Source: an uncultured virus (IMG/VR IMGVR_UViG_3300028591_000107)
Lineage: Duplodnaviria > Heunggongvirae > Uroviricota > Caudoviricetes
IMG/VR virus record: IMGVR_UViG_3300028591_000107
Strand: one strand, 5' to 3'
DNA: 20,000 bases
Shown here: in pieces, positions 3,075-16,244 of the stretch
Layout: each line of letters opens with the position of its first letter
Numbering within the stretch: the stretch's first letter is position 1
Position numbers and translations under genes: made by a program
The notes under the pieces: model-generated
Databases searched by the model: none
What the model was told of the DNA's origin: nothing
What the model saw: only the letters and a program-made list of their open reading frames with translations

Positions 3075-4005
3075 AACACCTTTTATTAAGTGGACAGGTA
3101 GTAAAAGGAAACAAGCACCATATATAGTAAATCAATTTCCTAAAGAAATAAATACATATTATGAATGTTTTTTAGGTGGAGGTTCAGTTTTACATGAATT
3201 ATTAAATAGAATATCTATAGGAGAATATAAAGTTAATAAAATAATATGTTCAGATTTAAATAGAGATTTAATTGATATATTTAATATATTCAAAAATAAA
3301 GATACTAGAAAAAAATTATTTGATTATTATTCAAACTTACATTATCAATTAATAGATAGAGCAGATATTCCAAACACACCAGATACTATTGAACAAATTA
3401 AAAAATGTCAAACATTATATTATGAAATGAGAAATAAATATAATGAATATATTGAAAATAATATTTATAATGATGAACGATCAATGTTATTTTATTGGAT
3501 AACAAGGACATGTTTTAATGGTCTTATAAGATATAATCCAAAATCTGGAAAATTTAATTCACCATTTCATGTAGGTGGTCGTTTTGGTATTAAACCCGAT
3601 GAACTTCAAAATGTATTTGATAGTTGGGGTTATGTAATGGATAATGTTGACATAGAATTTGTATGTAAATCATATGATGAAGTAATTAAAAATGCTAAAA
3701 AGGGTGATGTAGTATATATGGATCCACCTTATGAAAATACTGGTGGAATGTATTTTTGTACAACATTTGATGTAGAACACATGTATGATGTTATTGAAAA
3801 CATATCTAATAATGGGGCTAAAGTATTATTAAGTTATGATGGATTTAGTGGAGATAAAGATGATAGAACAGCAGATGTACGAAAATGGTATGTACGTCAT
3901 GAATATGTAAATAGTGGGCATTCATCATTTAAGAAACTTAAATCTAAATCATGTGGAACTGCTTCTAAAGATTTGATACGTGATTCGTTATATATGAACT
4001 TTTAA
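3061..4005 (+). CDS. dam: DNA adenine methyltransferase (Dam/D12 class)
   Basis: FIKWTGSK, motif I YYECFLGGGSV, TRD-like FNGLIRYN...FNSPF and catalytic YMDPPY. Overlaps the upstream gene by 14 nt. Confidence 0.92.
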   Translation: MKISKTPFIKWTGSKRKQAPYIVNQFPKEINTYYECFLGGGSVLHELLNRISIGEYKVNKIICSDLNRDLIDIFNIFKNKDTRKKLFDYYSNLHYQLIDRADIPNTPDTIEQIKKCQTLYYEMRNKYNEYIENNIYNDERSMLFYWITRTCFNGLIRYNPKSGKFNSPFHVGGRFGIKPDELQNVFDSWGYVMDNVDIEFVCKSYDEVIKNAKKGDVVYMDPPYENTGGMYFCTTFDVEHMYDVIENISNNGAKVLLSYDGFSGDKDDRTADVRKWYVRHEYVNSGHSSFKKLKSKSCGTASKDLIRDSLYMNF

Positions 4006-4032
4006 ATAAATAAAAATATAAAATTAAATATT

Positions 4033-4182
4033 ATGAATAAATCTATAACTGTTAATGAGCTTAAACAAATTTTAAATAAATTTAATGATAGTGATATTGT
4101 TAAACTTGAAATAAATGAATTATATTGGGATATCACAAATATAGAGTATAAAGATAATATTATAATTTTAAAATATGACTAA
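4033..4182 (+). CDS. Small hypothetical phage protein (49 aa; not in ORF track)
   Basis: MNKSITVNELKQILNKFNDSDIVKLEINELYWDITNIEYKDNIIILKYD*. It fills the gap between genes and has the TVxELxxxLxxF N-terminus common among small phage proteins. Confidence 0.65.
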   Translation: MNKSITVNELKQILNKFNDSDIVKLEINELYWDITNIEYKDNIIILKYD

Positions 4183-4253
4183 AGAAGAATTAACCTAAAG
4201 AATAAATTATATTTAGATAAAAAATTAGAAATATAAAATAAATTAAATATAAT

Positions 4254-5078
4254 ATGAAGAATATTGGATTGGTATATATGGCGACATCAGTTTATAAAAA
4301 TTATTTTCCTAATTTTTTGGAATCGATTAAATTTTTATTTCCTGACGATAATAAAACATTATTAATTATTAGTGATGGTTTACAAGAATACAATAATCAA
4401 ATAATTAATAATACAAAAATATATGTTAAAGACGTAGTAGATCTTCCATATCCATTTTTACCTTGTTGTAAATTTAGATTTGTAACAAGATATACAAAGG
4501 AATTTAATTTTGATTTTATTATGAATTTTGATTCAGATACAATCATATTAGAAAAACCTAAAGAGTTTTGGGAATCGCTCAAAATAAAAATGGAAAGTGG
4601 AAAATTATTAATGACATTACACCCACATTATTTATATACACCATATAGAGATTTTTATGAACCATTTATTGTTTCTAATAAAGATAGTATAGGATATATT
4701 GATGCAAATTATATTAATGAACATCGATCTTATATAATGACTAGTTTCTTTGGAGGAAAATATGATATTATAAAATATTTTGATGATAAAATTTATTATA
4801 TGCTTGGTAGAGATATGGATAATCTTAGATGGATTCCACGTTTTCCTGATGAAGCATATATGAATAAATTATATATTGAAGAAAATGTTTTAAACAATAA
4901 TGATAATATTTTATTAGAAAGATATGTAACAATTAATCCTTATATTTATGGAGATTTTCCTGAAAGAAATAATGGAGATATACATACAAATAATTTTCCT
5001 GAATATGATGATACAATTTTTATGAATCAAAAATATGATATATCATTAAAAGAAGATAAAAAAAATAATAATATTTAA
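4254..5078 (+). CDS. Family 6 glycosyltransferase (GT6, ABO/alpha-1,3-Gal(NAc) transferase-like)
   Basis: IGLVYMATSVYKNYFPNFLES, LLIISD, DxD motif (FDSDT), LHP, SFFGG and DEAYMNK follow the order of conserved GT6 blocks. Confidence 0.8.
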   Translation: MKNIGLVYMATSVYKNYFPNFLESIKFLFPDDNKTLLIISDGLQEYNNQIINNTKIYVKDVVDLPYPFLPCCKFRFVTRYTKEFNFDFIMNFDSDTIILEKPKEFWESLKIKMESGKLLMTLHPHYLYTPYRDFYEPFIVSNKDSIGYIDANYINEHRSYIMTSFFGGKYDIIKYFDDKIYYMLGRDMDNLRWIPRFPDEAYMNKLYIEENVLNNNDNILLERYVTINPYIYGDFPERNNGDIHTNNFPEYDDTIFMNQKYDISLKEDKKNNNI

Positions 5079-5087
5079 ATTAATGAT

Positions 5088-5213
5088 ATGGATATAATAA
5101 ATTTTATAGAAAATTATTGTTGTATAAAAACGAATAATGGGTATAAACATATTAAGCTTAAAAAATATCAAATAGAATTAATTAAATATTTAGAAAATCA
5201 TAAAAAATTATAA
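5088..5213 (+). CDS. 41-aa microprotein resembling the N-terminal Q-motif segment of T4-type large terminase (not in ORF track)
   Basis: MDIINFIENYCCIKTNNGYKHIKLKKYQIELIKYLENHKKL*. It starts 9 nt after the GT6 stop and ends 4 nt before the next ATG. Confidence 0.7.
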   Translation: MDIINFIENYCCIKTNNGYKHIKLKKYQIELIKYLENHKKL

Positions 5214-5217
5214 AGAT

Positions 5218-5580
5218 ATGGGATTAGATAATTTTACAAGATGTATTTATGGGTGGAAAGTTGAAGACCGTAAAAATGTTAAAAAGTTTGAAGATAAACT
5301 TGAAAAAGTAAATGAAAATTATTATGATGATTATTGCGATTTTTTAGTAACAGATACAATGTGTGGAGAATATATTTTCTTTGGTGCACATTTAGTCTAT
5401 TATGATGCTGATGAAGGTGGTGAAGTTATAGTTGATGATAAACTTATTAAACAAGTTACTAATAAATATAAAAACTTTTTAAAAGAACACCCAGAATTAG
5501 ATGAATTTTTAACCGAGCAAATAGGTAAATTAACAACAAGTAAAAAACCCCAATTATATATATTTCAACAAATTTGGTAA
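5218..5580 (+). CDS. Hypothetical protein (120 aa)
   Basis: ORF tightly packed with neighbours and showing phage-like codon usage. Confidence 0.8.
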   Translation: MGLDNFTRCIYGWKVEDRKNVKKFEDKLEKVNENYYDDYCDFLVTDTMCGEYIFFGAHLVYYDADEGGEVIVDDKLIKQVTNKYKNFLKEHPELDEFLTEQIGKLTTSKKPQLYIFQQIW

Positions 5581-5583
5581 GTT

Positions 5584-5859
5584 ATGAGCATATTAATAAA
5601 TAAATTAAAAGAATATATTAATAACATCAGAGATATTCGTAAAGAAACGATTAAATCTGATGAAATGAATGAAGAGCAATTATATTATCTGCAAGAAGGT
5701 TTTAGGGAAGGATTATGTATGGCTGCTATGATGTTAGCTGATGAACTTGATGCAGAAATAGGTTATGAAAAATATTTAAATATTGAAGAGAATTGGTGGC
5801 ATACTCACACAGACGAGAACGGTGATATTGGTACCGATGAACGTTTAATTATAAATTAA
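5584..5859 (+). CDS. Hypothetical acidic protein (91 aa)
   Basis: ORF with 3-nt and 2-nt gaps to its flanking genes. Confidence 0.78.
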   Translation: MSILINKLKEYINNIRDIRKETIKSDEMNEEQLYYLQEGFREGLCMAAMMLADELDAEIGYEKYLNIEENWWHTHTDENGDIGTDERLIIN

Positions 5860-5861
5860 TT

Positions 5862-6356
5862 ATGGATATAGGAAGTGGAAATGGTTATCCAAATGCAGCA
5901 TTATCAAATTTTGCTCCGCATCCATTTGAAATAGATGGAGTAGAATGTGCATCTATGGAGGGATTTTTGCAAAGTCTTAAATTTGAATCCGTAGATATGC
6001 AAAGATATGTTTGCACATTAGTTGGTAAAGCTGCAAAGAAAAAAGGTCGAAAAAAGAATTGGCAACAAAAACAAGAATTATATTGGAATGGAAAAACATA
6101 TAAACGAGATTCAGAAGAATACCAAAATCTCCTTAATAGAGCCTACAATAGACTTTACAAAAATGCGGGCTTCTATAAAGCTTTGCAAGCTACAAATGGA
6201 GCTACTTTGGAGCATTCTTTGGGAAAAAACAAGAGTTCCGAAACTGTACTTACACGACAAGAGTTCTGCTCTCGACTTACTCATTTGCGAGACAGAGGAG
6301 AACTTCCGGAATACAATAAACCAAAGCAACCGAAGCAAATGGAACTTGGAATATAA
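5862..6356 (+). CDS. 30.3: NADAR-family ADP-ribosylhydrolase, T4 gp30.3/AdfN-like
   Basis: ALSNFAPHPFEIDG...EGFLQSLK, LYWNG, YKRDSEEYQ, ALQATNG..LEHS and TVLTRQEF..L..LRD parallel T4 gp30.3 (ALSNFAQWPFVMDG..EGFLQGCK..LFWLG..LKHS..TILTEAEF), as recalled. Confidence 0.88.
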   Translation: MDIGSGNGYPNAALSNFAPHPFEIDGVECASMEGFLQSLKFESVDMQRYVCTLVGKAAKKKGRKKNWQQKQELYWNGKTYKRDSEEYQNLLNRAYNRLYKNAGFYKALQATNGATLEHSLGKNKSSETVLTRQEFCSRLTHLRDRGELPEYNKPKQPKQMELGI

Positions 6357-6384
6357 TGCAACATATTTAAACACTAAATTATAA
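6088..6384 (+). CDS. Putative overlapping +1-frame gene inside the NADAR gene (30.3'-like arrangement); alternative TTG start at 6022
   Basis: The +1 frame is open over 6022-6384, with an ATG at 6088. NADAR codon choice avoids +1 stops, and the stop lies 5 nt before the next ATG at 6390. Confidence 0.5.
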   Translation: MEKHINEIQKNTKISLIEPTIDFTKMRASIKLCKLQMELLWSILWEKTRVPKLYLHDKSSALDLLICETEENFRNTINQSNRSKWNLEYNATYLNTKL

Positions 6385-6389
6385 AATTG

Positions 6390-6515
6390 ATGGAGAATTG
6401 GAATTTGGAAGAGAGTAATATGTGCAAATTTGATCATTGTGTATATTATGATTGGGAAGAAAATAAATGTATTAGAAATATTTGTATTAAATTGGATAAT
6501 AATAATGGAAAATAA
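6390..6515 (+). CDS. Cys-rich microprotein (41 aa; not in ORF track)
   Basis: MENWNLEESNMCKFDHCVYYDWEENKCIRNICIKLDNNNGK*, with a C-x4-C-x9-C-x4-C pattern. It overlaps the next start at 6505. Confidence 0.6.
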   Translation: MENWNLEESNMCKFDHCVYYDWEENKCIRNICIKLDNNNGK

Positions 6516-6825
6516 ATATGTACCTAATAATGTTTGGAAATTTAGAATTGATTTAAAAAATAGTTATATAGAAAAAACTATTTATACAAAACCATTTCCT
6601 AATTTTCCTCTTGGTGAATATAAATCTGCGGAACAAGTTCAAAAATTTTATGATAATCAAGAAGATTTGGTTCAAGAAAAATATTTTACAAATAAACGTA
6701 TTCAAGAACTAAAAGATTATTTTTGCAAATTAATTCAAGAAGATGAAAATCCATTTTATATTTGTTGTGTAGATAAAGATAGTGGATATAATATAACAGA
6801 AGATCAATTATTTAAATTAGACTAA
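6505..6825 (+). CDS. Hypothetical protein (106 aa; start revised from 6430 TTG to ATG 6505)
   Basis: MENKYVPNNVWKFRID... The upstream extension overlaps the Cys-rich ORF and looks like off-frame sequence. Confidence 0.72.
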   Translation: MENKYVPNNVWKFRIDLKNSYIEKTIYTKPFPNFPLGEYKSAEQVQKFYDNQEDLVQEKYFTNKRIQELKDYFCKLIQEDENPFYICCVDKDSGYNITEDQLFKLD

Positions 6826-6857
6826 TAATTGATATAAAAATATTTATTAGTTAATCG

Positions 6858-7070
6858 ATGAAAAATAATGATGAAATTTCTATTTATAAATATGCTATAT
6901 TATATTATGGGAATATTTTAACTCCTAATGAATGGAAAATATTAGAAGTACCATTATCATCAATTAAATCATTAATACCTTCATATAATGGTTATGATAA
7001 AATTGAGGTTGAATGGAATGATGGAGAAGAATATCAAATAGATATGTTTAATAAAATAGAATTTAAATAA
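6858..7070 (+). CDS. Hypothetical protein (70 aa)
   Basis: ORF in the operon direction, ending 8 nt before the next gene. Confidence 0.65.
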   Translation: MKNNDEISIYKYAILYYGNILTPNEWKILEVPLSSIKSLIPSYNGYDKIEVEWNDGEEYQIDMFNKIEFK

Positions 7071-7078
7071 TTTTAATT

Positions 7079-7906
7079 ATGGTAAAGAAAAAGAAATTAA
7101 CACCAGAAGCAGAAAAAGAATTAAAGTTGCGTAAATTAAAGAAAGTTTATGATTTAATTGATGAAGAACTTAAATTAAAGGATCTTCCAGTAATTGAGCA
7201 AGTACATAAGTTAATAGATGCAGCTAATGAATTACAAGGTGAAATATGTCAAAAGTCTGATGATATAAAGATTAATGATTATGAAAAGGCTAAAGAAATT
7301 ACGCCTATTGATAAAAAAACATATCTTGATTTTGTAAATATATGTTCATTAAAGAATAACGATAATCTTAAAGAAAAGGCTATAGATAAATTTGAGGAAG
7401 ATTTTAATAATAGATTGTTTATCACAAATTTAAGACATTCTTTCTTAATGTCATATATGGATGATAAAGATCTTAAAATTACTGATGAAGATAAACAAGA
7501 ATATGTGCCTTATTCTGATTATAATTCTGATGAGTTTGCTAAGTTAATGGAAGAATCAGCAACTAAACGTGAATATATAAATTTGGTATTATGGAGAAGA
7601 TATAAAAATTATGCTAAAGCTGCTGAGTATATTACTAAAGGTGAATTAGAATATAAAGATTTTAAAAATTTGGTTGATTGGGAACATTATAAAGAAGGTG
7701 GTTATCCTACACCAAATTCACCATCAAAAATATGGGCTATATTTGATAGGTTTAATTATGCTCATCGTTTATTGACAAAATGGGAATATAATGACACTTC
7801 TAATAAACTTAAACATGAATTTGGATTAAATATAGAAGAAGTAGAACCACATCCAGTTAAACACCCATGGATGAAAGATGAAGATGACGAAAAGGAAGAT
7901 GAATAA
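7079..7906 (+). CDS. Helical protein, possibly with two T4 DsbA/GapR-like DNA-binding repeats
   Basis: Clear ORF with a basic N-terminus and acidic C-terminus. The segments VHKLIDAANELQGEI..IK...AKEITPIDKKTY and DEFAKLMEESATKREYI...LEYKDFKNLV resemble T4 DsbA by eye. The product call is tentative. Confidence 0.55.
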   Translation: MVKKKKLTPEAEKELKLRKLKKVYDLIDEELKLKDLPVIEQVHKLIDAANELQGEICQKSDDIKINDYEKAKEITPIDKKTYLDFVNICSLKNNDNLKEKAIDKFEEDFNNRLFITNLRHSFLMSYMDDKDLKITDEDKQEYVPYSDYNSDEFAKLMEESATKREYINLVLWRRYKNYAKAAEYITKGELEYKDFKNLVDWEHYKEGGYPTPNSPSKIWAIFDRFNYAHRLLTKWEYNDTSNKLKHEFGLNIEEVEPHPVKHPWMKDEDDEKEDE

Positions 7907-9184: not shown

Positions 9185-12100
9185 TTATTCTGCAATAGAA
9201 GCTTTCATTTGACCTGTTCTATAGATATGTAATTCATGAACCATCTTACCCATTCCACGACCTGGTTCGATATGAGTAGAAAGAATAGCCATTTCATTAT
9301 CGATAATTTCTGGTGTGTTGTTAGATTCATCCATAATATTAACATAATCTATAAGACCACCATTAGCTTTAACTAATTCACATATGTTATTAGCACAATC
9401 AAGAATAGCATTACGTGTACGTTGGTTATTGAATTCCCATTGGTATCTTTGAAGTACCTTTTCAACTTCGTCTTGTAAGTATATAACAAGTTCACGAACA
9501 TGTACTTTAGAAAGTGCTGAAACTGGTGTTTGTTTAGCTGTTTGGTTAGCATTAATAAATGTTCCAAAGTTAGGACGATATACCATACAGTTTACACCAA
9601 ATGGTTCAATAATGTTAAGCTCTTCTTGTGAATACTTATGATCAGGACCAACAAGACCAGCAGCAACAATATTTCCATAATTAGGACCAGCAACAATGTT
9701 ATACGGTTGACGTGTAACATATTTTTCAATAAATAAGTTAGATACAAGACCTGCTGAAGGTATAACTGAATCTATATAACCATCAGAGAATTTAAGTGGT
9801 GTATAGAATCCAACAAATGAAGCACCTTCCGAATCTGTAGGAAGACTAAACTTGATAGATGCACTCTTTTTATAATTAGCGCCATCAACTATATATTGAA
9901 TATTAAATAATCCCTTATTATCAGTAAATGATGCATATGGACATTTAATGAATGTTTTAATTGATGGGAAGTTAGCAATACAGAATGCTGATTGTTTTTC
10001 TTTACATAAGTAAGAAAGTACATTCTTAAGATTATTATCAGGGAATGATTCGAATGTATCAATTACATAACGATAATTAATTTCTGATTTATTAAGAAGT
10101 GCTGTACGAAGACCTTTATAGTCTGTTAATGCACTAAGTAAAGAATTTTGCCATTGAAGTTTAGCATACATTCCAGTTCCTTTTGGTTTGTCATTCTTAT
10201 AAACATAACCTTCAAGATATTGTGGAATCATAGTACCAATTTCTTGATTAAGAGAATTCTCAATACGAATTAATCTATATGTAGTTAATAATGCTTCATC
10301 ACCAGAATCAGGAGTTTCTTTATCACCAGCTGGAGTTAACAATGGTTCTCCAGTTAATAATACATAATGGAATTTGAATTCACCGGCTACTTTTGTACCA
10401 GCTTTAACTTCATTATCATTTTTTTTATAATATTCTGTGCCAATATCTTGTACGTATACATTATCAAAGAAATTATCTTTATCAGCATCATCATTAATTT
10501 TTCCATCACCATTAAAGTCATTTGTACCATCATTTGCAAGAAGAGTATCGCCTTTATGAAGGATAGATAATAATGAATTATCTGTATAATCGTCAGATAT
10601 TAATGCAATAAGACCATCTTGTCCATTAATTGTTTTGGTATTATCAATCTTCCATGAACTTTGAAGATTTATAAATGATACAGAAGGACCGTAAACACCA
10701 TCTTTAAGATTTTCATTACAATATTTTGGTTCTGATAATACTATTTTGTTAATAAAAGTAAATTTTATAATATTATCTATATCATAACTAATATCATGTT
10801 TTATATCTACATCATCTAAACGTGTAATAGAACTAATGATTGTTTCTGGACCATTTAAAGGATTATTTTTATTTAAAAATGCTGAGACTGTATTTTTCTT
10901 ATCTGAATAATATGTTCCATGACCAGAAGTTTTATCAAATGTAACACCACCATCTTGTCCATAAGGTTTAGTTAATAATCCTAATTTTTTTCCAAAATTA
11001 ATAACCTTTTCATACCATTTTGAACCATCAGTATCATTTATACTATCATTATCTTTACTTAAATGTATTGTTACCTTTGTTTCTGGATCACCAACTTGTG
11101 AAAGTACGAATTTTACTCTTTCACTAAGTTTAATATCTTCTATATTTTCATCACCCAAATTTATTTCAGAAACATAAAGTGTACCATATATATTTTTACC
11201 TGATATACTATAAGGTATTAATGGTTTTTCAGTTTCAATATCATAAATATTTGTTTTGAATGAAATTTCATCAGCAATAACAGGAGCATTAACATTTCCA
11301 AGAACTGTTGTTAATGCGTCACCTTTATAAATTTTTGTTAATGAAAGTGTTGAATTTGAAACAAGTTTATGTTGTAATGCATAAGATGTTGGAATTGCAA
11401 GACGTCCAGAAAGATCAATATTTGTACCTTCACCCTCATCAAGCATATCAGTATTAAATGACATCATCATATGATGAATATCTGCATCTGAATTAAATAA
11501 TACATTAAGAGCTGCATATTGACCTAATTTATTTTTAAAATCAGGAATAAGACAACCAATCCAATGACCAATTGCATTAGATGTATTATCATTATAAAGT
11601 GCATCAAGAGTATCAATTGATTCACCAAAAGGATCTATAACTTTATCGCGAAGTTTAATGATTTTTTGACCATCTTCATCTTCTACATCTGTAATGACAA
11701 AGTAATTCTTAAGTGTTTCAGAAGCTAAAATTTGTTTAGCAGTAAACTTACCTTTAAATACATAAATTTCTGCAAAATAATCTGAAATTAAATTATTTTC
11801 ATGACCTTCAAGATATTCAGGTATTTCTTCGGCTTTATCACTATACCAATCATTTACAGTAATATTATATTGTGATACTTTAGTTCCATTTGCTTTACGA
11901 ATAAAATATGTTCCAGAAGAAGCTTTATTATCAGTAATTGCTATGTTGATATATTGATCTAATACATTACCTTCAACAGAGCGTAATCCATTTAATTGAT
12001 TTTCATCAAGTTCCCAAAAACGGTTAGTATCATAAATGTCCTCAACGTTTAGATGAACAGTATCAATTGGATTAAATTTAGGGTTGAAATCAGTTGAAAT

Positions 12101-12415
12101 AGATGCACCCATTACTGTTTCACCATCAAATTTCTTCAAATTCAAACAAAGAATAGGACTTACTTGAAGCATTTGAAGAGCAAGACGATGGAAGTAAATA
12201 CCACGCTTTTCTAATTTTCTACTTGGTTCACCGAAAATTTGCTTAAATTCAGTAGGATCTTTAATATAAACAGGTATATTAAATGGACCCTTTTCTGAAT
12301 ATCCAACAACTAATCTAAGCATTTGAGTATCTTGATTTAAAACAGTAGATTTATCAAAAACAACACGATAAATACCAGCTGCTTTAAATTGTTGCAAATA
12401 TACAGGAATTGCCAT
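9185..12415 (-). CDS. gp18: Tail sheath protein (T4 gp18-like, enlarged, 1076 aa)
   Basis: N-terminal AGIYRVVFDKS..VGYSEKGPFNIPVYI...FKQIFGEP. C-terminal QTAKQTPVSALSKVHVRELVIYL..WEFNNQRTR..MDESNNTPEIIDNE..IEPGRG is the sheath core. Confidence 0.95.
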   Translation of the reverse strand: MAIPVYLQQFKAAGIYRVVFDKSTVLNQDTQMLRLVVGYSEKGPFNIPVYIKDPTEFKQIFGEPSRKLEKRGIYFHRLALQMLQVSPILCLNLKKFDGETVMGASISTDFNPKFNPIDTVHLNVEDIYDTNRFWELDENQLNGLRSVEGNVLDQYINIAITDNKASSGTYFIRKANGTKVSQYNITVNDWYSDKAEEIPEYLEGHENNLISDYFAEIYVFKGKFTAKQILASETLKNYFVITDVEDEDGQKIIKLRDKVIDPFGESIDTLDALYNDNTSNAIGHWIGCLIPDFKNKLGQYAALNVLFNSDADIHHMMMSFNTDMLDEGEGTNIDLSGRLAIPTSYALQHKLVSNSTLSLTKIYKGDALTTVLGNVNAPVIADEISFKTNIYDIETEKPLIPYSISGKNIYGTLYVSEINLGDENIEDIKLSERVKFVLSQVGDPETKVTIHLSKDNDSINDTDGSKWYEKVINFGKKLGLLTKPYGQDGGVTFDKTSGHGTYYSDKKNTVSAFLNKNNPLNGPETIISSITRLDDVDIKHDISYDIDNIIKFTFINKIVLSEPKYCNENLKDGVYGPSVSFINLQSSWKIDNTKTINGQDGLIALISDDYTDNSLLSILHKGDTLLANDGTNDFNGDGKINDDADKDNFFDNVYVQDIGTEYYKKNDNEVKAGTKVAGEFKFHYVLLTGEPLLTPAGDKETPDSGDEALLTTYRLIRIENSLNQEIGTMIPQYLEGYVYKNDKPKGTGMYAKLQWQNSLLSALTDYKGLRTALLNKSEINYRYVIDTFESFPDNNLKNVLSYLCKEKQSAFCIANFPSIKTFIKCPYASFTDNKGLFNIQYIVDGANYKKSASIKFSLPTDSEGASFVGFYTPLKFSDGYIDSVIPSAGLVSNLFIEKYVTRQPYNIVAGPNYGNIVAAGLVGPDHKYSQEELNIIEPFGVNCMVYRPNFGTFINANQTAKQTPVSALSKVHVRELVIYLQDEVEKVLQRYQWEFNNQRTRNAILDCANNICELVKANGGLIDYVNIMDESNNTPEIIDNEMAILSTHIEPGRGMGKMVHELHIYRTGQMKASIAE

Positions 12416-14504: not shown

Positions 14505-16244
14505 TTACCATTTTCCCATTTTACGCATTTGATTTGCAATAGTATTATGATAAGCTTGTACTGGATCTACATTCTCATCAATTTGTTTTTCATCTTTCTT
14601 GCTAAAATCTACATTAGCCCAGAATGATTCAAGAACACCAGCTTTTGTAAAATCATAAAGTTTAGAACTTCTTACAATTTCGTCTTGACGAGTTTCATCA
14701 AGTAATTCCCAAGATGGTTTGTATTGGGCAGGCATACTTTCTACTACATATACACCTTTCCATTTTGATGCTTCTTTATCTTCTTTAACAATATCTTCTA
14801 ATGGAGTATTATTGTTAGAAATAGTTTCAAGAAGTGAATCAATTTCCTCAAGACGACCAGCTTTATTTTCGGCTAAGAATGCAGATACATTAGCATTAAC
14901 TGATTCTTCAATTTGTGTCTTATGTTCAGGACCAAATTCTTCTGTAATCCAACCTTCTAATGTTGGAGCAAACTCTTCAGTAATCCATCCTTGGATTTCT
15001 GGTGAATATTCTTCTGTAATCCAATTTTGAATAACAGGGGCAAACTCTTCGGTAATCCATCCTTGTACTTCAGGAGCGAATTCTTCACATACCCAGTTTT
15101 GTACTTCTGGAGCAAATTCTTCAACAACCCAATCTTGAACTTCAGGAGCAAATTCTTCAACTATCCAGTTTTGAACACCTTCAGAAATAGTTTCGATAGA
15201 TTCATTAACCTTATTATTAATTGTTTCATTAACTGATTCATTAACTTCTGCTAATTTTTCATCAATTAATTTAACAATTGACTCCTTAAACTCAGGTCCA
15301 TATTGTTCAGTTACCCATTGCTCAATTGCATCATAATTAACAGGCTTTTGACTATCTAAAGATTCTTTTGCTACATGAAGTTCTGCTTCGATAGATGTTA
15401 CTTTATCAGTAAGCTTATCAATAGCTTCTTTTAAATCTTTCATATCAATGTTGTCATTATTATTATTTTTGTTATTGTCTTTGTCTTTGTCATCTTTTTC
15501 ATCTTTAGAATCCTTTTCATCTTTAGAATCTTTTTCATCTTTAGAATCTTTTTCATCTTTAGAATCTGATGAGTCATCACCATTCTTAGAGTCTTTATCC
15601 TTATCTTTGTCTTTATCCTTATCATCGGTATCTTCACCATCTAATAAGTCATCATCACCTTCGACAATAGCATACATAACATTACCATCATCTGCAGATT
15701 CATTAAGACATTCAAGGGTTTGATTTTCTTTTAATGAAGTAAGTTTAGCTTGACTAAAACCTGGTGTACCAACTAAATCATAAGTTTTAATTGTAGATAA
15801 AGTTACATGAGCAACACCACTTTCATTGGTTATGGTACCTGCACCACGAGAAGAAATATATAATGGAAGACCTCCTTCAACAATTGCCTTAGCAATTTGT
15901 CCTTTTGGAGTATTCAAAAGACATATAGTACCAGTAATAGTACCATCTTCATTCATTTGAATATCTTCAATTTTATGTGATACATTTTCTAGTGTAATAT
16001 TCATTGAGTTTGGATGTTCAAGTTCTCCAGGACAACCTCCATCTTTCTTGATTACATCTTGTAAAGCTTCAACCATTTTACCGTAATTTTCTTTATCATA
16101 AATACGATTATTTTGATTCTTTACACCACATACTCCGAATACTCCATGTAAACGCATTAAACCATCACCATTGTTAGATTCGAATACTTCCAAATTCTTT
16201 ATCTGACCAAGTGTTTCGTAAACTAAACAACGTTTATTTGTCAT
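14505..16244 (-). CDS. gp21: Prohead core protease (gp21-like) fused to scaffold/core (gp22-like) region
   Basis: KNQNNRIY, GELEHP, VSHKI, LNTPKGQIAK, ISSRGAG and YDLVGTPGF are gp21 motifs in roughly the first 170 aa. These are followed by an acidic linker and a helical, repeat-rich C-terminus, directly upstream of the MCP. Confidence 0.9.
   Translation of the reverse strand: MTNKRCLVYETLGQIKNLEVFESNNGDGLMRLHGVFGVCGVKNQNNRIYDKENYGKMVEALQDVIKKDGGCPGELEHPNSMNITLENVSHKIEDIQMNEDGTITGTICLLNTPKGQIAKAIVEGGLPLYISSRGAGTITNESGVAHVTLSTIKTYDLVGTPGFSQAKLTSLKENQTLECLNESADDGNVMYAIVEGDDDLLDGEDTDDKDKDKDKDKDSKNGDDSSDSKDEKDSKDEKDSKDEKDSKDEKDDKDKDNNKNNNNDNIDMKDLKEAIDKLTDKVTSIEAELHVAKESLDSQKPVNYDAIEQWVTEQYGPEFKESIVKLIDEKLAEVNESVNETINNKVNESIETISEGVQNWIVEEFAPEVQDWVVEEFAPEVQNWVCEEFAPEVQGWITEEFAPVIQNWITEEYSPEIQGWITEEFAPTLEGWITEEFGPEHKTQIEESVNANVSAFLAENKAGRLEEIDSLLETISNNNTPLEDIVKEDKEASKWKGVYVVESMPAQYKPSWELLDETRQDEIVRSSKLYDFTKAGVLESFWANVDFSKKDEKQIDENVDPVQAYHNTIANQMRKMGKW
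14928..15179 (-). repeat. 7 x 36-nt (12-aa) coding tandem repeat, consensus EVQxWIxEEFAP
   Basis: Read directly from the translation and DNA. A degenerate eighth copy (AIEQWVTEQYGP) lies at 15294-15329. Confidence 0.95.
15495..15566 (-). repeat. 4 x 18-nt coding tandem repeat (DSKDEK)
   Basis: Plus-strand unit TTTTTCATCTTTAGAATC repeated four times with a single synonymous change. Confidence 0.95.

Follow-up and report, generated by a model that had tools for sequence, protein, structure and literature searches.

A stand-alone 41-residue phage protein resembling the Q-motif segment of the large terminase, and its putative mini-protein family

Among the proteins of tailed phages the large terminase subunit (TerL) is the most conserved, and it is a main target of bacterial pattern-recognition immunity, the sensors of which, on one view, read several TerL features at once. 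Contacts of Avs3 on TerL have reportedly been described by Gao et al. in 2022. In phage lambda the N-terminus of TerL binds the small terminase (TerS), and phage satellites block the TerS of their helper; the satellite proteins Ppi and Rpp interfere with packaging by binding the helper's small terminase. In eukaryotes, microProteins, which derive from multi-domain proteins and keep a single domain, titrate the partners of these ancestors. Direct binding is the means by which Avs sensors detect terminases (PMC11564622, PMC13581612, bioRxiv 10.1101/2025.06.06.658234).

Phage type and habitat are also relevant to the locus described here. Similar genomes are described for the 'Jug' jumbo phages of the gut, which measure 360-402 kb at a GC content of 27-30 % and for which Bacteroides or Phocaeicola are the predicted hosts. 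Their terL is often interrupted by group I introns of about 200 nt, which leave it in 2-3 pieces; horizontal exchange of terL also occurs, with alleles only 38-57 % identical between genomes >90 % identical overall (PMC12880540). A split or relic terL is therefore the rival explanation which had to be tested here.

The subject of this study is a 41-residue micro-ORF in the window, by which we mean the whole 20-kb stretch of viral DNA that was analysed. It resembles the Q-motif segment of T4 gp17 in its predicted fold and in the conserved F, E, Y, L and Y-Q residues, and the profile of its family aligns with gp17 chains 2o0h, 3ezk and 3cpe at E-values of 5e-9 to 8e-9, on the same adenine-binding YQ segment to which the original prediction had aligned it. 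Unlike gp17, the micro-ORF is encoded away from any terL, carries family-specific substitutions and comprises ~40 residues without the N-terminal region, Walker A and B, catalytic residues or nuclease domain, and its product therefore cannot be an enzyme.

The likeness to Ppi and Rpp may lie in possible action only, that of a small protein diverting or blocking a terminase component; these proteins belong to satellites and not to the phage itself, they are no fragments of a terminase, and a relationship in sequence is not expected. Similarly, eukaryotic microProteins are comparable as stand-alone interaction modules from larger proteins, however, belonging to another kingdom and derived from other proteins, they offer an analogy and nothing beyond it. 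The anti-Avs proteins ORF55, a DNA ligase, and ORF83, a Rossmann-fold Smf/DprA-like protein, may share a target pathway with the micro-ORF, namely Avs sensors detecting terminase and portal, however, neither imitates the sensed protein (bioRxiv 10.1101/2025.06.06.658234). Split terL genes in Jug and T4-like phages likewise include short ORFs with sequence of the TerL N-terminus, and both phage type and habitat are the same (PMC12880540), however, such pieces keep the TerL N-terminus and usually Walker A, with the remainder within 1-2 kb, whereas no remainder lies close to the micro-ORFs and two relatives, G001 and G013, have a complete terL besides the short copy.

Within the available text of the anti-Avs and terminase-sensing literature searched, no terminase-fragment decoy is described. 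Searches of the literature on terminase decoys, truncated terL, anti-Avs proteins and terL fragments, which covered available main text, similarly found no description of stand-alone Q-segment mini-proteins. The micro-ORF product is a TerL homologue of unprecedented minimal architecture, forming a new family.

The locus and its likeness to TerL

Judging from its gene content, the window derives from an AT-rich myovirus with T4-like genes, and the stretch occurs in sequencing runs on gut samples of sheep, cattle and goats. Genes for a tail tube, a 1076-aa sheath, a gp23-like major capsid protein and a gp21-like prohead protease lie on the minus strand and begin ~3 kb further along. The block that holds the micro-ORF is co-directional on the plus strand and tightly packed, with gaps of 9, 4, 3 and 2 nt. 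The TAA of the upstream glycosyltransferase lies 9 nt before the micro-ORF ATG and in the same frame, and the micro-ORF ends with a TAA at 5211-5213 (Table 1). Other plus-strand neighbours are a helicase, a MazG-like protein, a Dam methyltransferase and a gp30.3 homologue, and no terL is present in the window. The original prediction had pointed to an overlooked ORF with its own ATG and TAA, packed behind the glycosyltransferase and placed among accessory and not packaging genes, and its coordinates, its 41 residues and its setting all agree with what was found here.

Table 1. Position of the micro-ORF, its TerL-like part and its neighbours in the window
Feature	Position	Strand	Remarks
Micro-ORF, 41 aa, ATG..TAA	5088..5213	+	phrog_5989, E = 7.1e-8; stand-alone TerL Q-segment mini-protein family
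TerL-aligned stretch, residues 2-39	5091..5204	+	Aligns to residues 81-117 of the G001 TerL
Glycosyltransferase, upstream neighbour	4254..5078	+	phrog_3317, E = 4e-13
120-aa protein without assigned function, downstream neighbour	5218..5580	+	Starts 4 nt after the micro-ORF
Homology boundary of the cassette	5086..5316	+	Contigs from two other gut samples

The open frame alone proves nothing, since at the 28 % GC found here 41 consecutive sense codons have a probability of ~0.04 per position and such a frame is not rare. The micro-ORF has no Shine-Dalgarno-like site, which is normal here as only 2 of 19 genes have one. Promoter-like sites occurred at chance level (24 found against 24.9 expected), a scan for terminator-like sites found none, and megablast of the window against phage records gave no match. 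In an RNA-library run (X6), the next gene is represented by contigs that agree with the window in every position over 5230-5461 and 5438-5591; over the micro-ORF only AT-rich pieces of 36-41 nt were obtained, and contigs cannot show absence.

Residues 2-38 of the micro-ORF product matched the PHROGs profile phrog_5989, annotated as 'terminase large subunit', at profile positions 120-156 of 347 (E-value in Table 1), so that the lack of a TerL profile match, which had been named beforehand as grounds for doubt, does not apply. Pfam gave no match at E<=1. By tblastn, 185 phage records matched, and of the 40 matches listed 33 lay under an annotated large terminase and 7 under an unannotated or 'hypothetical' feature. 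Residues Y27-Q28 align with the TerL Y-Q, that is, with the Q-motif or adenine-binding segment. In terL frames from viral contigs the aligned segment continues into a strand and the RQxGK(T/S/C) Walker A loop in 22 of 22 cases, and the micro-ORF ends before this strand, as had been proposed. The Walker A P-loop, Walker B and the rest of the ATPase core are absent, with nothing terL-like following the micro-ORF in any frame. The C-terminal RNase H-like nuclease domain is likewise absent: when the 652-aa TerL of G001 was searched against the 20-kb window with tblastn, the micro-ORF was the sole terL-like match (Table 1), covering only 37 TerL residues, and the rest was noise.

An AlphaFold2 model computed from an alignment of short members only reached a pLDDT of 93.7, with a helix at 3-10, a β-hairpin at 12-15/18-21 and a second helix at 26-38. 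The best four Foldseek matches in the PDB were all T4 gp17 (TMq 0.70-0.74, rmsd 1.2-1.4 Å over 35-37 columns), although at this length their E-values of 0.8-1.2 are not significant. Of the top 9 rows from BFVD, 7 bear the name of a terminase or DNA packaging protein and 2 bear none, the best matches being mostly terminases or terminase pieces of 123-238 aa; neither the PDB nor the BFVD comparison gave an alternative fold scoring above gp17. On sequence grounds the micro-ORF is a true homologue of the TerL Q-motif segment, and its peptide is predicted to take the same helix/hairpin/helix fold on its own.

The mini-protein family and its genomic settings

The main new result is that the micro-ORF, as its sequence relatives indicate, is one member of a large, previously uncatalogued mini-protein family, which the original prediction had not foreseen. 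A word-indexed search found a 41-aa protein 93 % identical to the window ORF (P0001), and another entry (P0082), on a contig of 143,636 bp, is identical to it; identity to other family members is 45-61 %. A family profile built from three copy types was searched against 1.84 billion representatives with a cut-off of E<=1e-3 and matched 76 of them, 58 of which are only 35-95 aa long and rank above full-length TerLs. Of the 19 top-ranked matches 18 are short, and five TerL-sized proteins (550-798 aa) appear only from E ~7e-5. All 59 short proteins retrieved start with Met, 21 of them exactly 5 residues before F-I-E as in the window ORF. The family can be described by the core F-I-E-x-Y-C ... I-K-L-x-x-Y-Q-x-x-[FL]-I, a length of 35-95 aa, a Met start and an end before Walker A, and the window ORF has every core residue.

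The family has no Pfam, PHROGs or NCBIfam entry of its own. Its members had no meaningful match in Pfam or NCBIfam; in PHROGs, 39 of 60 match the TerL profile phrog_5989 and 6 of 60 match phrog_36964. The ESM Atlas returned 30 feature matches, the best three being clusters of viral sequences named 'hypothetical protein', 55-59 aa long, each holding 54-79 members and scoring 0.96-0.97. Family members lie on contigs up to 468 kb. As protein databases hold called ORFs only, broken copies are invisible there. Scans at the DNA level found further copies in G002 (47 aa), G001, G013, L087, L088, L089, L110 and the MAG contigs L115 and L116. Although detection was by DNA or six-frame search with no requirement for an ORF, a Met start and an unbroken core were present in all 10 DNA-level copies, the window included. 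A start and stop not conserved in relatives had been set down in the original prediction as evidence against it; the copies compared are intact and have a conserved Met start. A metagenome scan with a narrow alignment gave one match, 40 % identical and at a contig end.

Family-specific residues were sought by comparing 29 Met-start and 32 N-extended members with 29 TerLs in an HMM-anchored alignment. At column 26 the short ORFs have Lys or Thr, and Arg, found in 17 of the 29 TerLs, occurs in only 4 of 61 and is not among their four commonest residues. Column 32 is Phe in 24/29 Met-start and 17/32 N-extended members, against Ile, Tyr or Met in TerLs. At column 7, Ile is present in 29/29 and 24/32 of these two classes, and TerLs have Ile in 13 and Ala in 12. 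The Tyr of column 5, present in 24/29 TerLs, is lost in the Met-start class. The window ORF has Lys at column 26, Ile at column 7 and Leu instead of Phe at column 32, where its variant P0081 has Phe. The nearest likeness is short-to-short for 56 of the 61 short members and TerL-to-TerL for 27 of 28 TerLs, and F6, E8, Y10, I22, L24 and Q28 are nearly invariant in the family, with the reservation that short proteins were found by a short-protein profile, which inflates both their mutual likeness and the apparent invariance of Q28. Derived residues common to short members and absent from TerLs point to one long-lived lineage rather than repeated debris.

The set is heterogeneous, as some N-extended members keep the TerL motif 'KCxxD..YF'; by their sequence, some of these may be first exons or contig-end pieces of a real terL. 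A second TerL type has a segment near its N-terminus (...FIEKYCL.PEG...FQK.FI...ARKNGKT) which also resembles the family. A search by 5-residue words, a weak one, found no longer or fused form of the window peptide among catalogued proteins; since no catalogued longer protein has such words in common with it, a recent donor is not indicated.

In its 90 % cluster the window peptide has 6 variants, with changes at positions 2, 5, 12, 31 and 36-41 and the six core residues untouched; two of the six lack the last two residues. The 90 % cluster of P0019 has 11 variants. Between the window and G002, dN/dS over codons 1-34 was 0.53 on 16 synonymous sites, and 0.165 for the neighbouring 120-aa gene. 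The value of 0.53 is compatible with relaxed or diversifying constraint; it indicates weak constraint at best and is too noisy to decide. The original prediction had proposed looking for conserved short ORFs with dN/dS below 1: the conservation is borne out, and the ratio, although below 1, comes from this one pair. Other signs of selection are indirect, namely that frames have stayed intact while the family diverged deeply. Taken as a whole, it is probable that these micro-ORFs are a real, selected gene family.

The genomic settings of the short copies vary, and their neighbours differ in every independent context. In G001, other genes follow the glycosyltransferase ortholog (89 %), and the ortholog of the 120-aa gene (85/120 identical) is preceded by two small hydrophobic ORFs and no micro-ORF. 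In G004, which is nearest to the window when capsid proteins are compared (88 %), Dam and gp30.3 are separated by three unrelated ORFs. DNA homology between the window and the G002 copy is confined to 5076-5179, beginning at about the ATG. A contig of 289 nt (X2 record 1) is homologous to the window from 5086 through the micro-ORF into the next gene, with 18 differences over 5086-5316 (92 % identical), and one of 399 nt (X4 record 22) from 5086 into the next gene, with 38 differences over 5086-5438 (89 % identical); the upstream 58 and 43 nt of these two contigs are unlike the window. Other contigs carry the next gene alone, from about 5185 or 5217. A joint of 5041 to 5216 in an X2 contig would correspond to an allele without the micro-ORF, however, its shorter side is only 24 nt, which is too weak. 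No flanking repeats were found at the cassette ends, and a search of viral contigs found no relative of the 120-aa neighbour. To judge by these comparisons, each short copy is a cassette of one gene, and the accessory or early-type blocks that hold the copies differ among these AT-rich jumbo phages, the relatives reaching 376 kb (G001) and 410 kb (G013).

Alternative origins and roles

The alternative that survives best, though we consider it unlikely, is a neutral relic, i.e. a piece of terL DNA left by terL turnover, without function and with its frame open only because it is short. It could have arisen by breakage at an intron or intein hot spot by Walker A, by ectopic capture of the 5' side or by replacement of terL with a foreign allele. 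Related gut jumbo phages do have intron-split terL and divergent alleles, as described in PMC12880540, and G013, L008, P0020, P0056 and P0060 have insertions at Walker A or directly behind it, a short way downstream of the point at which the micro-ORFs stop. The chance of the open frame (~0.04) and the dN/dS of 0.53, which is not strong constraint, are also compatible with a relic, and broken copies would escape protein databases. However, the 58 short representatives, at 50 % clustering or below, keep the Met start and the core motif, and they have derived residues in common which TerLs lack. All 10 copies found at the DNA level are intact, homology between copies begins at the ATG, and no catalogued longer protein contains 5-residue words of the window peptide.

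The surroundings of the copies also speak against a relic. Searches with 12 TerLs of several types at the 10 short-copy loci found nothing terL-like beyond the short copies themselves, the flanks covered being +-6 kb at most loci, less for the shorter L088, ~+-1.5 kb at two loci and the whole 20-kb window. In controls searched in the same manner, terL resumes after a 1.7-kb insertion at Walker A in L008 and after 1 kb in L018, and L081 has one continuous terL with a single in-frame stop. Among the neighbours scanned (7 in the window and 11 in L028, L067, L004 and four other loci), none has an endonuclease or intein domain. Rfam found no intron-like RNA in the window, in 4000-7200 at E<=1 or in five related loci; L008 and L081 gave no match either, and because L008 bears an insertion this silence is weak evidence on small introns. 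A broken or split terL was rejected as the identity of the micro-ORF, there being no terL remainder at the 10 loci when controls show one within 1-2 kb. The claim of a stand-alone ORF with no frameshifted terL downstream, made in the original prediction, holds for the window and for these loci.

An intact terL elsewhere in the genome, which had also been anticipated, was seen alongside the short copy in the two near-complete relatives examined, G001 and G013. G001 has an intact 652-aa terL with its own Q segment and a 59-aa short copy 200 kb away. The terL of G013 occupies a frame of 831 aa, into which ~200 aa are inserted in frame at Walker A, and this genome too has a short copy, of 50 aa. 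Of 31 aligned positions, only 11 agree between the short copy of G001 and the TerL of that genome; the two TerLs are identical to each other at 17 of 21.

Rather improbable, in our judgement, is that the peptide is functional but not a terminase mimic, the small fold being reused, for example, to bind another phage or host protein or nucleic acid, or as an adaptor module. The family signature does depart from TerL at several otherwise conserved positions, and the tails of its members are variable and often basic. In P0028 (184 aa) the module is fused to an unrelated C-terminal region without Walker A, and P0038 has two copies of the strand-Q-helix part. A conserved phrog_25460 / phrog_5839 module occurs 0.6-3 kb downstream in 5 of the 10 short-copy loci, however, it is absent from the window and was rejected as a partner of the window copy. 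Moreover, the six nearly invariant positions, including the Q of the Q motif, have the same residues as are conserved in TerLs, and no fold match was better than gp17.

A split terminase, in which a terL product without the Q-motif element would obtain it from the peptide, either in trans or through splicing, is highly improbable: the adenine-contacting Q is near-invariant and split terL is common in related phages (PMC12880540) and in cultured phages, BFVD holding 'terminase large subunit' pieces of the 123-238 aa noted above, however, neither the 20-kb window nor the flanks of the 10 copies hold another terL piece within the distance typical of real splits, the terL genes of G001 and G013 have their own complete Q segment besides the short copy, and Rfam gave no sign of an intron, weak as that is.

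A possible mimic of TerL

The reading we prefer is that the micro-ORF product is a TerL mimic competing for a protein that recognises the Q-motif element, to which we assign a probability of roughly 45 %. The micro-ORF would encode a domesticated TerL sub-domain consisting only of the helix/β-hairpin/helix Q-motif element that precedes Walker A. The peptide would be made together with the co-directional early or accessory genes, would present the N-terminal element of TerL without enzyme activity, and would thereby compete with full-length TerL for the protein recognising this element. Two leading candidates for that protein appear about equally likely. It may be a host immune sensor detecting TerL, the peptide then being a decoy or blocker, or it may be a partner in packaging, for example the small terminase of a rival phage, whether co-infecting or resident, in which case the peptide would act as an interferer with packaging or its regulator. 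The original prediction had likewise suggested a decoy for Avs sensing, a dominant-negative packaging regulator or an inhibitor of rivals.

A conflict-related role is favoured by the placement of the copies among accessory and DNA-modification genes, their presence or absence between close relatives, their varied neighbourhoods and their divergence from the resident TerL. We also consider, as a doubtful extension of the mimic reading, a mobile family of 'sub-domain decoys' in jumbo phages, i.e. copies, 40-60 residues long, of the surface element that is most conserved in TerL, made early, which would blind host pattern-recognition receptors of TerL or sequester the small terminase of rivals.

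ORFs of this kind fall below the usual gene-calling lengths and, if called, risk the label 'terminase large subunit'. Mini-proteins mislabelled in this manner can confuse terL-based phage taxonomy and completeness checks. If the peptide is a mimic, it would represent a new class of proteins, very small in size, which counter defence or mediate interference between phages, and would pinpoint the TerL surface which partners or sensors read. If the decoy reading is true, a phage would here for the first time be seen to copy part of its own hallmark protein and use it as a weapon, be it in counter-defence or against other phages.

Genomic surroundings of the micro-ORF

The interval between the Dam methyltransferase and gp30.3 genes, in which the 41-aa micro-ORF resembling the TerL Q-motif segment lies, is a replaceable island in the comparison of the window with the relative G004 (see table). 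The TAA stop codon of the glycosyltransferase in this island (5076-5078) is in frame with the micro-ORF at a spacing of 9 nt, and read-through of this codon would fuse the two products. This shared frame is probably a coincidence, because the sequence upstream of the micro-ORF differs in other samples. In the 376-kb relative G001, the protein adjoining the 59-aa short copy is similar in its C-terminal half to the glycosyltransferase of the window; a glycosyltransferase adjoining a micro-ORF has therefore been seen twice, with different orientation.

Considering all 10 loci found at the DNA level, window included, five of them, constituting three independent groups, carry a conserved module of ~75 aa (phrog_25460 / phrog_5839; motif '...SDYSKHxIQPW...WDADIVKRILR...') located 0.6-3 kb 3' of the micro-ORF. 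This module was not found in the window.

Coordinates of the features discussed (window positions unless a locus or genome is named)
Feature	Position	Strand	Description
Island, window	4005-5862		49-aa ORF, glycosyltransferase, micro-ORF, ORFs of 120 and 91 aa
Same interval, G004	L064, G004:C1:141300-144400		three ORFs (124, 281 and 298 aa), none related to those of the window
Two-part glycosyltransferase-like protein	L004:3-1328	-	442+ aa; divergent from the adjoining 59-aa short copy of G001
phrog_25460 / phrog_5839 module	L028:10440-10760; L115:6708-7046; L116:6573-7040; L088:3714-3938; L089:6560-7030
terL, 410-kb relative G013	L085/L086, G013:C1:48195-50651	-	single 831-aa open frame
terL, split	L008:9788-13293		1.7-kb insertion
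terL, split	L018:9932-12472		~1-kb insertion
terL, in-frame stop	L081:5827-7626		frame end 6078
Tail sheath	9185-12415	-	1076 aa, unusually long
Prohead protease ORF	14505-16244	-	579 aa

Interrupted and possibly deviant terminase genes, and composite proteins

L008, whose insertion lies at Walker A, and L018 were the positive controls for a split terL. The terL gene of G013 contains an in-frame insert of ~200 aa exactly at Walker A, an intein-like position, and its 'RQIGKC...' junction also occurs in three fragments (P0020, P0056 and P0060). The terL of L081 aligned continuously in a single frame with full-length TerLs, with one in-frame stop directly after '...NLRQY'; an error in sequencing, decay to a pseudogene, or recoding might explain this stop.

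TerL-like ATPase pieces or genes lacking Lys at the Walker A position (e.g. RQxGxS, RQAGIT) were also observed (P0045, P0049, P0067, P0069, P0076, L072 and L076); they possibly represent paralogues of terminase that are deviant or have been inactivated. In P0028 (184 aa) the mini-protein module is followed by a fused, unrelated C-terminal region for which Pfam gave no match, and in P0038 (268 aa) the strand-Q-helix part ('RIKLxPWQKRMI') is present twice.

Structural genes and start sites of the window

Family matches of the tail sheath are confined to its C-terminal ~320 residues, and the protease domain of the prohead protease ORF is limited to the first ~180 residues. Across all start sites of the window, a Shine-Dalgarno-like sequence precedes only 2 of the 19 genes, and A/T-rich regions are found upstream of the starts. 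Such a pattern would be expected for a host with weak Shine-Dalgarno use, such as Bacteroidota.
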